Shown here one piece after another: positions 44,849 through 49,638 of a stretch of DNA of 64,000 nucleotides (position 1 is the stretch's first letter; the number at the start of each line of letters is the position of its first letter). The stretch comes from an uncultured Trueperaceae bacterium (GTDB lineage: Bacteria > Deinococcota > Deinococci > Deinococcales > Trueperaceae). The position numbers and the translations under genes are program-made. The notes under the pieces are model-generated. The model made no database searches and was not told the DNA's origin. It worked only from the letters and a program-made list of their open reading frames with translations. The DNA lies in assembly GCA_963799485.1 (NCBI GenBank), contig CAWCXJ010000005.1, positions 170,480 through 234,479 of the forward strand, read 5' to 3'.

Positions 44849-46137
44849 GACGCGTCCCCCAGGCGTTCGACGAGCATCGCGTGACCGAGCCCGCCGGCGG
44901 CGCAGGCCGTGACGAGCGCCAAGGTACCGTCCTCGTCGTGAAGACGGTGGGCCGCCATCGTTAACAGGCGGGTGCCGGTTGCGCCGAACGGGTGTCCGAG
45001 TGAGAGCGAGCCGCCCCAGGTATTGAGTTTGTCCATGTCTACGTTTCCAACGCGGCTGTCTCGGTTGAGCCGTTTTTTGGCGAAAGTGTCGGACTCTATA
45101 GCCCGCAAAACTGCCAACACCTGACCGGCAAACGCCTCATGCAGTTCAATCACGTCGATATCGCCGAGCGTTATGCCTGCCCGGTCCAGAACTCGAGGCG
45201 TCGCGTAGGCCGGGCCTAACAGCAATTCTTCGCCGGGGTCTTGGGCGACGAAGGTGTACGCGCCGAGCCGTGCCAGCGGCTTGAAGCCGTGCGCTTTAGC
45301 GGCCTCTTCTTCCATCAAGAGGACTGCCGACGCGCCGTCGGTCAGGGGTGACGCGTTGCCTGCTGTCACGGTGCCGAACGGTTTGACGAACACCGGTTTT
45401 AACGACGCGAGTTTTTCGGGGCTCGAGTCCGCCCGAATCGTGTTATCCCGTTCCAACAGGTCGAACTTGGGTGGGACGGCAGTCGGCATTACGCCCTTAA
45501 GCTTGCCCGCTTCCGCCGCTTGTGCCGCGAACTGGTGCGAGCGCAGCGCGTAGGCGTCTTGTTCTTCGCGTGACACGTCAAACGCCGCCGCAAGCTTGTC
45601 GGCACTTTCGCCCATCGTTTCACCGGTCGAGTATTCCGCGACTTTGGGTGCTTTCGGCAACAGCTCGGACGGCGACAAGCCCTGCAGGAGTTTGCGGTAC
45701 TCCAAAGCCGAGCCGTAACGTTGCGATTCGTAGAGGCGTTTGCGAACCTCTAAAGGAAACTGCGGCGGCGTATCGGACAAGACCTCGACGCCTCCGGCAA
45801 TCGCCACGTCGGTTTGACCCGAACGGATGGCTTCGGCGGCGCTCACGACCGCTTGATTGGCAGAAATACACGCCATCGTCACAGAATGGGCGGGCGTCTT
45901 GTGCGAGAAACCTGCGCCTAAAGAGGCGTCACGCGCGACGTTGCTCGTCGAAACGTTCTGCACGACGTTGCCCATCACCACGAGACCGACGTCTTCGGGT
46001 GCTAATCCGGTCTCGTCTAATATGCCGCGTAGCGCCAGCCGCGCCAAATCATACGAGGTGAGCCCCAGATAGTCCGTTCCGGAACGGCGGAACGGCGTGC
46101 GGACGCCCTCGACCAATACAACCTTGCGCTCAGTCAT
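44845..46137 (-). CDS. fadI: Acetyl-CoA C-acyltransferase (thiolase), beta subunit
   Basis: MACISA, HEAFA, GHPFGATG and CAAGG motifs. Confidence 0.9.
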   Translation of the reverse strand: MTERKVVLVEGVRTPFRRSGTDYLGLTSYDLARLALRGILDETGLAPEDVGLVVMGNVVQNVSTSNVARDASLGAGFSHKTPAHSVTMACISANQAVVSAAEAIRSGQTDVAIAGGVEVLSDTPPQFPLEVRKRLYESQRYGSALEYRKLLQGLSPSELLPKAPKVAEYSTGETMGESADKLAAAFDVSREEQDAYALRSHQFAAQAAEAGKLKGVMPTAVPPKFDLLERDNTIRADSSPEKLASLKPVFVKPFGTVTAGNASPLTDGASAVLLMEEEAAKAHGFKPLARLGAYTFVAQDPGEELLLGPAYATPRVLDRAGITLGDIDVIELHEAFAGQVLAVLRAIESDTFAKKRLNRDSRVGNVDMDKLNTWGGSLSLGHPFGATGTRLLTMAAHRLHDEDGTLALVTACAAGGLGHAMLVERLGDAS

Positions 46138-46201
46138 ACTCTACTTTACTCGGTCGGCTGTGAGTAAACCGTTGGTTACTCGAGGTTTACCCGATTATGG
46201 C

Positions 46202-46785
46202 CTACCTGCCGTTTTCGACCCGCACCTCGTTTTCACCCAAATAGGTGACGGCTGCCAGTGAGACAACGGGAACCCCCAACGCCCCCAGCGCCTCACGACC
46301 CGCTTCAAAGGTTTTTTCAATGACGCGACCGACGCCAGCAAGCTCGGCTCCGCAGCGGCGAATCAATTCGGCGAGCGCCAAAATGGTTCCGCCTGAGGCC
46401 AAAAAGTCGTCGATAAGCAGCACCTTGTCGCCTGCCCCGACGTATTCCGGTGAGCGGTAAAGTGGGGTGACGCCGCCTTGGTACGACTCGGCGCGTGTCC
46501 GGCGAGCGCGTCGGGCATCGTGAGGGGACGTTTTTTACGGGCGTAGACCACAGGAGCCTTCGGCGCGACGCCGGTCGCAAATGCCGGCGCGATACCGCTC
46601 ACTTCGGCGGTGACGATTTTACTTATGTTCGTTATACCCGGTGCCGCAAAACGCTTGGCGAACGCGTGACCTAGCTCGAGGGTCAGGTCGGGCTCGAGTC
46701 GGCGGTTGATAAAACCATCGACTTTCAAGATACCGCCGCCCAAGCTGATACCTTCGGCGGCGATGCGGGCGACTAAACGTTTCAT
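46202..46785 (-). pseudogene. xpt: Xanthine phosphoribosyltransferase, frameshifted near 46477
   Basis: ILKVDGFIN, TAEVSGIAPA and YARKK, then IDDFLASG and IEKTF in a second frame. Confidence 0.85.
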
Positions 46786-47063
46786 ATACCACCCAGCGTA
46801 ACGGTTTTGCGTCCATTACAAAGATGTTCGGCAATATCTCGGTAAGTTCGAGTCTCACACCCTGCTGCAACGGCTTGCCGGGTTAAAGCCGCGCCGCATA
46901 TCGTCTATGGTTTACATACTTGCAAAATAAAGCGACAAAGAAAACCGTAACGGAAAAGCCATACAAGTTGCATTTTTTTCTGCAAAACACGTAAACTCAA
47001 TGAACTTAACCGCCGGGTAGCACTTTTTGAAAGGCTGTGATAGCATTGTGTCGGGTCGGACAG

Positions 47064-47091
47064 TTGACCGGGCGTCTATACCCGGTATACT
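47064..47091 (+). promoter_or_regulatory. Promoter TTGACC-16-TATACT with internal inverted repeats
   Basis: accggg...cccggt arms and a tatacc-c-ggtata palindrome over the spacer and -10. Confidence 0.55.
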
Positions 47092-47192
47092 ACCTCCGGT
47101 CACACGGACGGTGCTCTACCGCGCATACGTGTTCTGTCCGTCTAATCTAACCCGGTACTGCGCGAATTTACCTTCCAATAGGGGGAAACACG

Positions 47193-47318
47193 ATGAAAAA
47201 ACTAGCTCTTCTTCTGTCAATCGGTGCGCTTCTTGCTTTCGGCGTAGCCCAAATCATGTCCGGCGGCATGATGTCCGGCGGTCTGATGTCCGGCGGCCTG
47301 ATGTCCGGTGGGATGTAA
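47193..47318 (+). CDS. 41-aa secreted Met/Gly-rich peptide with four xMSGG repeats
   Basis: AGGGGGA RBS; MKKLALLLSIGALLAFGVA-QIMSGGMMSGGLMSGGLMSGGM*; own promoter and terminator. Confidence 0.8.
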   Translation: MKKLALLLSIGALLAFGVAQIMSGGMMSGGLMSGGLMSGGM

Positions 47319-47345
47319 GCTTACTCGTTAAGCGTACATACTACG

Positions 47346-47372
47346 AGCACCGGGTTTCCTGGTGCTTTTCTC
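47346..47372 (+). terminator. Intrinsic terminator after the peptide gene
   Basis: agcaccggg-ttt-cctggtgct followed by a T-rich tract. Confidence 0.7.
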
Positions 47373-47576
47373 TTGCCCTGACCTTTTAGGCCAAACTGTG
47401 TAACAAGACTGTTCAAAGTAGGAACTTTGTTGTTATTTCATAAAGAAGCGTCTCTTCGAGACATTTTCGTCTGTTCTTCAGCTGAAAGCTGCGATTCTTA
47501 AGCTTAGTCTTTGCTGTCATCAGTGCAAGACGTGATACGTTAGGCGGGTTCTTAGGAAGCACGGATAAGTAAGGGG

Positions 47577-47798
47577 TTGGTTGCTGTCAAGTTTGACCTC
47601 TCGGATTTAGGATTTGTTTATACGACACTTTTTGCGCTCTCGTTAGTACTCATCAACCCTTGGGGCGTCCCCTTCGGCGGTATCTGGACGACGCCCAAGG
47701 TTTACGTCGTTATCCTTTTGGCGCTGCTGACCTGGAGCGTGCTCCTCGTTCAAGGCGCGCGCGGCTTGTGGACATGTCGGGCGGCGACTTCTAACTAA
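47577..47798 (+). pseudogene. Truncated membrane-protein fragment (possibly an O-antigen-ligase-like N-terminus)
   Basis: Two TM segments around INPWG..GGIWTTPKV, ending abruptly at a 14-bp tandem repeat (47800-47827). Confidence 0.35.
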
Positions 47799-47903
47799 GC
47801 TTTAGGCTAAAGCCTTTAGGCTAAAGCAGCATTTGTTGGCGAGGCGCTACGGAAATAGCGCCTCTTTTATTTTTGACGAGGAAGCAGCAGTGGAGGTAGT
47901 ACG

Positions 47904-48464
47904 GTGCCAAGTGGACGCGCTCACGAATCGATCAACCTGCTCGTTTACGGGTTGGGAGCGGTGGCTTACGCTTACGCACGGCAAGGGGGGCTCACAAGAG
48001 AGTTCGATACCCTGCTTGCACCCGAGACGCTTAAGACGTTTAGCTTGAGTTATTTTATCGGTACATTTTTGGTAACGCCCGACCTCGACCTGGCTGAAAA
48101 CCGGATGCAAGCGCGTAACAACTGGGGGCTTTTAGGGATGCTCTGGATTCCTTACGGCGCGCTGTTTAGCCACCGTGGGCTGTCCCACACCTGGATTGTC
48201 GGGCCGCTAACTCGTCTGCTCTATCTCGCGTTTCTCGGTTTGGCGCTTTCATGGGCTGCCGCGCAGGTAGGGCCATATTTCGGCTACAGCTTTTCGTTTA
48301 AGGCCGAACTCGGTCAAAACTGGCCTGAACTTGCTGTCGGCGCGTTGGCAGGTTACTACGCTTCGCAGTGGTTGCATCTGCTTGCCGACGGGATTCGTCC
48401 CGACCACGGGTCTCGCAAACGCAGTGGCACGACCAAACGTTCGTCAAAACGTGTCGGGCGTTAG
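47904..48464 (+). CDS. Metal-binding membrane protein (DUF2227-like)
   Basis: MPSGRAH, PDLD, W.PY...FSHRGLSH and WLHLLAD motifs. Confidence 0.85.
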   Translation: MPSGRAHESINLLVYGLGAVAYAYARQGGLTREFDTLLAPETLKTFSLSYFIGTFLVTPDLDLAENRMQARNNWGLLGMLWIPYGALFSHRGLSHTWIVGPLTRLLYLAFLGLALSWAAAQVGPYFGYSFSFKAELGQNWPELAVGALAGYYASQWLHLLADGIRPDHGSRKRSGTTKRSSKRVGR

Positions 48465-48531
48465 GCCGAGAGGCAATTTTCAGACAAGTTCGCTGTGGTA
48501 TCTTACGCCATGAACTCATAGGAGGGTATAC

Positions 48532-49638
48532 ATGGCCAAAGTTAAGCTCACAACCCTGTTGACGCTTGTACTTTTCTACATAGCACCTAGCCTGGCGGCG
48601 GCGCAGACCGCCCCTGAAACGTCCCCGCAAACATCATGGACGTGCCCGGAAGGGTTTTCAGGACAAACGCTCAACGTCTACAACTGGACGACTTATATCG
48701 CCGAAGACACCATCGCCAACTTCGAGGCTTTGTGCGGCGTCCAAGTGACCTATGACACCTACCCGAGCGCCGAGGATATGCTCTCGCGTATTCGTCAGGG
48801 AAACCCCGGTTACGATATCGTGGTTCCAAGCGACGTCGTAACCTATCCGATGATTGCCGAAGGGTTGCTGGAGCCCCTCGACAAAGCCAAGATTCCCAAC
48901 TTTGCCAATCTCAACGAGACGCTTTTAGATTTACCCTTCGACCCCGGCAACCAGTACACCGTGCCGTATCAGTGGGGGACGGTCGGCATTGGCTACAACC
49001 AAACCAATGTCGGCGCTGAAGTGACGGGTTGGAGCGACCTGTTCTCTTACGGCGGGCCGGTGGCGTGGCTCGAGGACGTTCGCGGCATGATGGGTACCGC
49101 CTTGGTGATGCTCGGCTTGGATCCTAATACCCGCGACCCCGAAGAGATCGCCCAGGCCCGTGATTACCTTATCGAAAACGGTAACAACGTCGTTTATATC
49201 GCACAAGACGACGGACAAGAGGTGCTGCTGCGCGGCGAGGCCGATATGGTCATCGAGTATTCCGGCGACATCTTTCAGATTATGGACGAGTGCGGCTGTG
49301 ACGACTACGCCTATGTGATTCCCGAGGAGGGCGCGTACTTTTGGGTCGATAACGTAGCGGTTCCGGTCGGCGCGCCCAACAAGGCGCTCGCCGAGGTCTT
49401 TATCGACTATTTGCTCGACCCGGCTGTCGGCGCGGATATCTCGAACTACACCGCGTACGGCTCGCCGAACCAGGCCGCCATCGACCAGGGGCTTATCGAC
49501 CAGGCGCTGTTGGACGACCCCGCTATCTATCCGCCTGCAGCGGTCGAAGAACGCCTCTACTCGATTGTCAACGACCCCGAGATGGAGCAGCTCTATAACG
49601 ACGCCTGGGACGAAGTGAAGATTTACGTCGGCGGCTAA
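48532..49638 (+). CDS. potD: Spermidine/putrescine ABC transporter substrate-binding protein
   Basis: LNVYNWTTYI, GYDIVVPSD, VPYQWGTVGIGYN and PEEGA.FWVDN motifs. Confidence 0.9.
   Translation: MAKVKLTTLLTLVLFYIAPSLAAAQTAPETSPQTSWTCPEGFSGQTLNVYNWTTYIAEDTIANFEALCGVQVTYDTYPSAEDMLSRIRQGNPGYDIVVPSDVVTYPMIAEGLLEPLDKAKIPNFANLNETLLDLPFDPGNQYTVPYQWGTVGIGYNQTNVGAEVTGWSDLFSYGGPVAWLEDVRGMMGTALVMLGLDPNTRDPEEIAQARDYLIENGNNVVYIAQDDGQEVLLRGEADMVIEYSGDIFQIMDECGCDDYAYVIPEEGAYFWVDNVAVPVGAPNKALAEVFIDYLLDPAVGADISNYTAYGSPNQAAIDQGLIDQALLDDPAIYPPAAVEERLYSIVNDPEMEQLYNDAWDEVKIYVGG

Follow-up and report, generated by a model that had tools for sequence, protein, structure and literature searches.

A small gene in a 64,000-nucleotide (nt) stretch of DNA from an uncultured Trueperaceae bacterium (contig CAWCXJ010000005.1, hereafter the window) appears from its sequence to encode an exported, methionine-rich peptide that is restricted to the genus Truepera, with a repeat and a conserved leader that are both undescribed. 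The gene is the open reading frame (ORF) at positions 47193-47318 of the window on the forward strand, and judging by its conservation it is a genuine, selected and self-contained gene of the genus. What we say of the function of its product we infer throughout. We tentatively propose that the peptide could act in the periplasm as a thioether buffer, of Cu(I) or of oxidants, a reading to which we give somewhat less than an even chance, and we weigh it below against the alternatives. The coordinates of all features are collected in Table 1.

The gene encodes little more than a signal peptide and a short repeat. Its product has 41 residues, MKKLALLLSIGALLAFGVAQIMSGGMMSGGLMSGGLMSGGM, made of a Sec-type signal and then QIMSGGMMSGGLMSGGLMSGGM. 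The signal peptide was assigned from sequence features alone and not from the output of a predictor: an MKK n-region, a 13-residue hydrophobic core, and G-V-A followed by Q, which places small residues at -3 and -1. A cut after G-V-A would leave a 22-residue peptide that counts 6 Met, 8 Gly and 4 Ser and lacks charged residues, in agreement with the composition given by the first-pass annotation of the window, a note made from the sequence before this analysis. That annotation had also likened the A-Q ending of the signal to those of other exported proteins, and the same A-x-A/Q ending is indeed predicted in a CHRD paralogue and in the peptides of genus g42 (both described below) and in PotD of the window. 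The stand-alone unit that it had described, with a promoter-like site, a leader stem, a ribosome-binding site (RBS), the 41-codon ORF and a terminator, is present in all its parts; the stem pairs acggacgg at 47104-47111 with ctgtccgt at 47134-47141, and the terminator begins 27 nt 3' of the ORF. The ORF is found in a large protein collection as an unnamed called protein (P0001).

The same unit occurs in all the Truepera genomes that we compared. Our set comprised six genomes, that of the window (G000) and five others, including T. radiovictrix (G002). All six have the same syntenic locus (fadA-xpt-peptide-DUF2227/potD), with an orthologue of the gene in each of the five others, and the unit of promoter region, leader, signal peptide, repeats, stop and terminator recurs in 6/6. 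Over codons 1-20 of the signal peptide the proportion of nonsynonymous differences (pN) is 0.02-0.23 and that of synonymous differences (pS) is 0.24-0.77, and the pN/pS ratio, 0.08-0.58, lies below 1 in all 15 pairs of species. The Ser codons TCC, TCG and TCA and the Gly codons GGC, GGT and GGG swap between species while the residues are kept. The number of repeats varies in whole units, between 4 and 7 in total, each 4 or 5 codons long, with the frame and the stop kept. The RBS is conserved among the orthologues, and a hairpin followed by a T-run stands 3' of the stop in all six of them, with stem sequences that differ.

These observations bear on the simplest alternative, that a simple-sequence repeat has left an open frame by chance, or a decaying one, without function. 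Such a frame would fit a very small family (six clusters in a collection of 5.8 billion proteins and two more members among 1.84 billion representatives) and a low-complexity repeat that draws many junk matches. However, the syntenic recurrence in 6/6 genomes and the pN/pS below 1 in 15/15 pairs argue that the unit is more than chance, and the frame and the stop are kept despite the changes of the repeat, together with the RBS and the terminator. We therefore regard a chance frame as hardly credible. Nor is the gene a longer known gene cut short to its 5' end, a concern raised when it was first noticed, since its architecture is conserved and the ORF ends straight after the repeats in the relatives. 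It ends as ...GGM-TAA in the five Truepera species that have the mini-gene, and over these five species and eight database variants the ending is GGM in 11 of 13, GG in P0002 and GGN in P0011. A search for longer proteins with the 41-residue query found nothing at E<=0.01, which is weak evidence.

The repeat core of the family can be read from 14 distinct sequences with 71 units in total. The residue before GG is S in 40 units and T in 31, i.e. S or T in 71/71, and M occupies the place ahead of this S or T in 69/71. The core is therefore M-[ST]-G-G as judged from this alignment of units, and Met appears to be the selected feature of the family. The predicted mature peptides have 21-37 residues with 6-14 Met, which amounts to 27-38% Met (27% in the window) and about 36% Gly. 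Thirteen of the 14 have 0-1 charged residues in the predicted mature part, and the repeat part of the remaining one, the extended gene call P0008, has none. Insertions of E or MD are seen in family variants.

Few members of the family are found in the sequence databases, and none has a name. The collection of 5.8 billion proteins holds six family clusters of 40-48 residues, all unnamed, one of which is the gene call of the window. A profile search with HMMER against the 1.84 billion representatives added P0010 and P0011. It returned 31 representatives at E<=0.001; of the 27 that we examined, 24 are unrelated low-complexity repeat proteins, two are these family members and one, P0033, shares the repeat module. 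In a protein scan of genome contigs, the matches listed include one true locus, which belongs to genome G005, and a false one. The ESM Atlas gave no usable match to the peptide, and Pfam and NCBIfam gave no family match. DNA contigs of the metagenome runs X1 and X2 over 47256-47311 carry variant unit numbers and endings, with loose ends behind 47311 and before 47256, which suggests repeat-length polymorphism among close relatives.

The orthologue in T. radiovictrix is a different protein that has kept the methionines. It has 100 residues with a signal peptide, four MTGGD units and short helical-looking spacers, and it is rich in Met through the stretches MMDMAMM and MDMMDME, to which Asp and Glu are added. 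It is preceded by the same promoter and leader, the latter matched by our leader covariance model R1 with E 2.4e-20. We found no other relatives of this protein in the protein collection, and its annotation says only 'hypothetical protein'. The retention of Met in a protein that otherwise differs is a point that we count in favour of the thioether buffer.

Transcription of the gene probably starts further upstream than was first proposed. The first-pass annotation had placed a sigma-70-like promoter, TTGACC-16-TATACT, ahead of a leader of about 95 nt. This site is the single promoter-like site found in 46700-47700, where shuffled sequences give a mean of 0.8. Its -10 is conserved as TATACT, TATAGT or TATCGT, while its -35 is lost in 3/6 Truepera. 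In the alignment of the six loci conservation is much stronger 5' of the ORF than in the downstream flank, and the conserved region includes a candidate extended -10 element. A contig of run X6 begins exactly at 47053, 7 nt 3' of this element, at depth 14; the 22 letters in front of it have no counterpart in the window and resemble adapter sequence. A 199-nt contig of the metatranscriptome run X4 spans 47066-47264. Each of the two contigs reaches upstream of the start that the TTGACC site would predict. Because of the conserved extended -10 and the contig starts at 47053 and 47066, a leader of about 140 nt is probably the right one and more likely than one of 95 nt. The contigs come from relatives that are 93-96% alike and RNA libraries may contain DNA, and we therefore treat them as a hint only. 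X6 is a library of 7 million letters that is RNA by guess only. No sequencing run contained half of the query words, and stretches that the runs leave uncovered carry no information.

Two further observations concern this region. Some 90-110 nt 5' of the conserved promoter block, G001 and G004 (loci L006 and L008) have a perfect palindrome CTACCA-N3-TGGTAG; in the window it is degenerate (CTGCAAAACACGTAA) and aligned to about 46980-46995. It may be an operator, or part of a promoter-like element upstream, TA[ACG]A[CG]T. A 17-base pattern of the promoter block matched at least 119 stretches in metagenomes, which we consider chance matches because neither an ORF with M[ST]GG repeats nor the RBS motif occurs in any of them.

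The leader RNA is predicted to be partly structured. RNAalifold on the six leaders gave four helices with 25 pairs, namely a closing helix, a GC hairpin, the acggacgg/ctgtccgt hairpin and a weak hairpin at the Shine-Dalgarno sequence. In the predicted structure 93.3% of the cells are paired, vs 34-56% when the partners are slid. Double changes are seen in four pairs, all of them within the acggacgg/ctgtccgt hairpin, and the covariation score was matched by 4 of 500 shuffles. This lends modest support to the predicted structure, since covariation among only six related sequences is weak evidence. The fold of the single sequence is no better than those of shuffles (z = -0.51). An invariant CGCGCA inside a hairpin loop is complementary to an invariant TGCGCG downstream, and a leader pseudoknot is possible for this reason. 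A search of 46000-48600 against Rfam 15 at E<=10 gave no relevant match, the lone match being a microRNA model on the other strand with E 2.3. The leader is single-copy in the genome according to nhmmer; a match of TGCGCGAACTTAC at C6:523414 lies inside a coding region and was rejected as chance. Among the 128 Trueperaceae genomes searched, the model R1 finds the leader in 6/6 Truepera and in none of the 122 others.

One could therefore ask whether an RNA of about 320 nt is the main product, acting as a regulatory RNA or as a cis sensor of the thermometer or riboswitch type, with the ORF as a translational sensor of, e.g., the supply of Met-tRNA. Conservation of the leader (mean column identity 73%) above that of the flanks, with none downstream, is what such an RNA would show, and so are the four helices with their pairing and covariation scores, the predicted hairpin over the Shine-Dalgarno sequence and a terminator so close to the ORF. 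Yet the purifying selection on the signal peptide and the export architecture in 6/6 species would make no sense for a sensor ORF, and no conserved downstream gene is there to be regulated, as the next gene is DUF2227, Wzy_C or a remnant of the latter depending on the species. The lack of an Rfam match at E<=10, the poor single-sequence fold, the small number of related sequences and the absence of any further copy in the 128 genomes or elsewhere in this genome speak in the same sense, and we hold an RNA product to be very improbable. A transcription attenuator fares no better: the six loci have no conserved downstream biosynthetic operon, and the selection on the signal peptide also counts against an attenuator leader peptide.

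We return to the thioether buffer and describe how it might work. Signal peptidase I would release an uncharged, disordered peptide of 21-37 residues, 27-38% of them Met, into the periplasm, where its thioethers would serve as a soluble buffer. They could transiently bind the soft metal ions Cu(I) and Ag(I), in the manner of the Met-rich domains of CueO, or they could be sacrificially oxidised by hypochlorite or peroxide, in the manner of MrpX. Expression would probably be set by the conserved promoter region and by the conserved leader, about 140 nt long and partly structured, with its last hairpin presumably lying over the RBS. A metal-buffering or an antioxidant role is plausible by composition, and no genomic context supports either of them. 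In favour of the buffer we count the retention of Met across the family, the insertions of E or MD, the precedents of MrpX and CueO, the similar repeats of two other exported proteins described below (P0033 and a CHRD protein), and the lack of a canonical MrpX in the six Truepera genomes.

Several observations weigh against this buffer. Ser/Thr is as invariant in the repeat as Met (71/71 units), which a pure thioether role does not explain, and the repeats of the window species have Leu in place of two Met. Tails of the related x[ST]GG type that other exported proteins carry, described below, often have A, V, D or Q for M. No copper, silver or redox gene is adjacent to the peptide gene in any of the six Truepera loci, and the csoR-copZ/copA locus lies on another contig, with operators unlike the promoter of the peptide gene. 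The genome has no MsrP equivalog (best score 45 bits vs a cut-off of 207), its MsrQ-like (Ferric_reduct) matches are below the cut-off, its one MsrA has no signal peptide and is thus cytoplasmic, and MsrB was not found in it; an MrpX-like regenerating cycle would therefore have to run without a visible reductase. The promoter regions of the mini-gene and of the sigma factor-CHRD row described next have no convincing motif in common, only short words. Finally, the RNA evidence consists of contigs only, of which that of X6 is RNA by guess, and carry-over of DNA is possible.

The M[ST]GG repeat is also found on larger exported proteins of the family Trueperaceae. The only other M[ST]GG-repeat ORF in this genome encodes a CHRD protein of 217 residues (C8:127800-128453) with a signal peptide, after which stand MMSGG repeats (seven M[ST]GG units); its CHRD domain matches over 117 positions with E 4.7e-31. 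It is the last gene of an operon-like row (C8:126354-128453) behind an extracytoplasmic function (ECF) sigma factor and an RskA-type anti-sigma factor, and G001 and G003, two sister species, also have M[ST]GG CHRD proteins. In three Truepera species the sequence ahead of the CHRD gene is conserved, with a TTAGAGC...GCTCTA hairpin before the RBS. The CHRD protein resembles the mini-peptide in its post-signal MMSGG repeats and differs from it by the CHRD domain and by an unrelated signal peptide, promoter and leader. As these three are unrelated, the mini-gene did not arise as a recent copy of the 5' end of the CHRD gene.

A second set of stand-alone mini-genes is found in the genus that we call g42. 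A profile search over the 128 Trueperaceae genomes found genes with a signal peptide, (MMTGG)n and a final G in all three g42 genomes. Like the gene of the window, they have their own promoter-like site, a leader of about 95 nt, an RBS, a signal ending in A-Q, 3-6 MTGG units and a terminator. Unlike it, they have another signal peptide and leader, end in GGG instead of GGM, and are not matched by the model R1 (0/3). They adjoin an orthologous gene for a Wzy_C-family membrane protein of 677-702 residues in 3/3 genomes, and also one or two paralogous genes for helical proteins of 163-177 residues with MTGG repeats at both ends. These helical genes sit between the mini-gene and a divergent dnaK-grpE-dnaJ operon, near a SurA-like gene. 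In the one model that we made of such a helical carrier the mean predicted local distance difference test score (pLDDT) is 53.5 and the tails come out as disordered, their block means being 29-47. Foldseek gave no match to it in the PDB at E<=0.001 and, beyond that threshold, generic helical bundles only, and a sequence search of the PDB found nothing meaningful. We considered this carrier as a Spy/ZraP-like protein and dropped the idea, as there was only a sub-threshold match to the Pfam family Metal_resist (E 0.085).

Looser tails of the form x[ST]GG, where x is M, A, V, D or Q, are found on still other proteins. They stand at both ends of a SurA/peptidyl-prolyl isomerase (PPIase)-like ORF of T. 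radiovictrix (L171 406-1611), on an alpha/beta-hydrolase-like ORF of the present genome (L002 706-1665, G000 C13), on a Lipoprotein_15 protein, on a ThuA-like ORF and at both ends of a helical protein of genus g4. The x[ST]GG repeats may thus be a lineage-specific tail module of exported proteins in the Trueperaceae.

If so, the mini-gene might encode a copy of this tail module without cargo, and the repeats might be disordered tethers or Ser/Thr acceptor sites, e.g. for O-glycosylation by the Wzy_C protein. The product would then be a free envelope peptide, perhaps a modified one, or it would serve as decoy or competitor for any factor that recognises the tails. Protein O-oligosaccharyltransferases are among the enzymes of the Wzy_C family. 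The modification is kept alive as an idea by the invariance of Ser/Thr, by the recurrence of the x[ST]GG tails and by the Wzy_C neighbour: S and T interchange between species in a position that is never anything else, the module occurs on CHRD, hydrolase-like, SurA/PPIase-like, helical, Lipoprotein_15 and ThuA-like proteins, the modelled tails are disordered, and a Wzy_C gene adjoins the mini-gene in 2/6 Truepera and in 3/3 g42 genomes, with a remnant in the window. But Wzy_C is absent from 3/6 Truepera loci, is a fragment in the window with the intact orthologue on another contig, and differs in orientation between the genera, and the strong Met enrichment of the mini-peptides and of the T. 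radiovictrix orthologue is left unexplained. We consider a cargo-less tail copy unlikely, though not negligible, and the same holds for its product as a free envelope peptide or a decoy. A bolder version, in which M-[ST]-G-G would be an undescribed envelope modification or tether module of the Trueperaceae and the mini-gene its cargo-less, hypervariable Met-rich glycopeptide with a novel structured leader, seems to us rather improbable; if true, it would give a new class of secreted peptide, serving the envelope or stress defence, and no analogue of MrpX.

The carriers of the module suggest yet another possibility, that the peptide is a Met 'bristle'. The concept stems from work on SRP54 and Sgt2; here a flexible Met-rich peptide would bind unfolded or hydrophobic clients in the periplasm as a minimal holdase-like or anti-aggregation agent. 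P0033, a protein of 148 residues, has a signal peptide and a long run of GMM[SYH]GG units ahead of an LTXXQ/Spy-like domain (26.2 bits vs a cut-off of 24.3 for the LTXXQ family of Pfam, and 31.6 bits vs a cut-off of 174 for the Spy model). It resembles the mini-peptide in its GMMSGGMM-type units after the signal and has no homology to it outside the repeat, and its sequence shows a near-identical Met-Gly repeat used ahead of a predicted periplasmic domain of the chaperone (Spy-CpxP) type. Together with the SurA/PPIase-like ORF it gives a set of module carriers that are or resemble folding factors, the g42 helical carriers adjoin dnaK-grpE-dnaJ near the SurA-like gene, and changes of M to L are tolerated at the variable first position of the unit. 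All this is purely associative, however; a Gly-rich peptide of 22 residues without a fold is an unlikely chaperone, and the g42 helical protein has no significant family or fold match. A chaperone-like bristle is in our view improbable.

The gene stands alone between xpt and DUF2227/Wzy_C. A full-length Wzy_C gene follows it in two of the six Truepera (G004 and G003), and the intact Wzy_C orthologue of the present genome is found at C6:521858-523405. On the other side, the xanthine/purine phosphoribosyltransferase-like gene at 46202-46785 on the reverse strand is split into two overlapping frames, 46363-46785 (140 residues) and 46202-46423 (73 residues, Pribosyltran). The sister genomes have this gene as one ORF of about 200 residues, and the split is due to a frameshift or an assembly error.

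Two more specific ideas about the gene found no support. The first-pass annotation had remarked, as a speculation, that the palindrome TATACC-C-GGTATA (47077-47089) at the -10 loosely resembles operators of the CsoR type. It is complete in the window species only, its left half not being conserved, and the relatives keep only CCCGGTATA, the stretch that forms the -10 region and the 3' arm of the GC hairpin; the second leader helix overlaps the palindrome. The 9-mer TACCCGGTA occurs 20 times in the genome. The genome encodes three CsoR homologues, all on other contigs and one of them beside copZ and copA, and the repeats upstream of copZ and copA are GC-rich and inverted, of the type CCCACCCC...GGGGTGG, unlike the promoter of the peptide gene. 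The other idea was a precursor of a ribosomally synthesised and post-translationally modified peptide (RiPP). The neighbours, fadB/fadA, xpt, the Wzy_C remnant, DUF2227 and potD/potA, include no modification or processing gene, and a Sec signal stands in place of a RiPP leader.

Table 1. Coordinates of the peptide gene, of its control region and of related features; positions are those of the window unless a locus is named.
Feature	Position	Strand	Remarks
Candidate extended -10, TGaTAGCAT (pattern TGnTA[GA][CA]AT)	47038-47046	+	conserved in 6/6 Truepera loci
Conserved 5' leader	47053-47192	+	about 140 nt if the start is near 47053; six species
Sigma-70-like site TTGACC-16-TATACT of the first-pass annotation	47064-47091	+	possible second promoter or part of the leader RNA
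Helix 2, GC hairpin/palindrome ACCGGG-N8-CCCGGT	47067-47086	+	6 pairs, 94% of cells paired, one-sided (G-U) changes only
Helix 3, acggacgg/ctgtccgt hairpin	47104-47141	+	10 pairs, 4 changed on both sides, 94.9% of cells paired (six sequences)
Helix 4, weak predicted hairpin, CCU-UC with GGGGG of the Shine-Dalgarno sequence	47171-47185	+	5 pairs, 90% of cells paired, no double changes
RBS	47180-47187	+	AGGGGGAA
41-codon gene	47193-47318	+	signal peptide 47193-47249, predicted mature peptide 47250-47315, stop TAA
xMSGG-encoding tandem repeat	47256-47308	+	Tandem Repeats Finder: 15-bp unit x 3.5 copies, 92% matches
Intrinsic terminator	47345-47372	+	10-bp stem and 3-nt loop (hairpin 47345-47367), then T-run
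Wzy_C-family membrane protein remnant	47577-47798	+	73 codons; corresponds to the N-terminal end of the complete gene in G004 and G003; lies outside the unit
g42 helical-protein loci	L180 8376-9417; L181 8467-10467; L182 10117-10635		
x[ST]GG-tail carrier loci	L171, L002, L158, L160, L169, L172		

The peptide would reduce the idea of an exported Met-rich peptide to its minimum, a signal peptide followed by M-S/T-G-G only. To our knowledge MrpX of the Proteobacteria is the single periplasmic Met-rich peptide that has been characterised, and the Met-rich domains of copper enzymes are still debated. The present gene belongs to a radiation-resistant lineage of the Deinococcota in which we found no canonical MrpX (0/6 Truepera) and, in the window genome, no recognisable MsrP. 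If Cu(I) binding or oxidant scavenging were true, the peptide would be the simplest natural model of thioether-based buffering and easily synthesised. If instead the invariant Ser/Thr were modified, it would reveal an unknown modification system of the envelope. Genes of 40-50 codons of this sort are left unnamed by gene callers and family databases. Among the papers that a literature search listed, nothing relevant turned up on MMSGG, MSGGM, MMTGG or MTGGM repeats or on a Met-rich small peptide of Truepera.

Two known systems are closest to the proposed buffer. MrpX of Azospira suillum, a small signal-peptide-bearing protein in which Met makes up 20% and charged residues 44%, serves as a sacrificial sink that hypochlorite oxidises, and its gene is part of a yedYZ-mrpX operon under SigF/NrsF (PMC4436054). 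For E. coli CueO it is reported that the Met-rich domain, which is partly disordered, transiently recruits Cu+ through multiple Met, with a Cu5 site made of 2 Met and 2 Asp (PMC11494321). The peptide is like CueO in that many Met stand in a flexible, Gly-rich and presumably periplasmic segment after a Sec-type signal, and the combinations of Met and Asp in the T. radiovictrix orthologue recall the Met+Asp copper sites. The segments of CueO are inserts of an enzyme, whereas the peptide has no attached domain, no His and mostly no Asp, and its gene has no link to copper genes or to CsoR-type operators.

The likeness to MrpX goes further. The peptide shares with it and with the family TIGR02953 (penta_MxKDx) the small size, the signal peptide, the richness in Met and a five-residue period, seen here as a 15-bp DNA repeat. 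It differs in its composition, with Met at 27-38%, Gly at about 36% and 0-1 charged residues, against the figures of MrpX given above, and in a gene that stands alone instead of in a yedYZ (msrPQ) operon with a sigma/anti-sigma pair. An hmmscan of NCBIfam with eight proteins, including the window, G001, G005, T. radiovictrix and g42 forms, gave no match to TIGR02953 at E<=10, and none of the six Truepera genomes has a match over its cut-off (best 20.5 bits vs 41, at an unrelated place). Judged by sequence and by analogy, the peptide would work most like MrpX, from outside the MrpX family.

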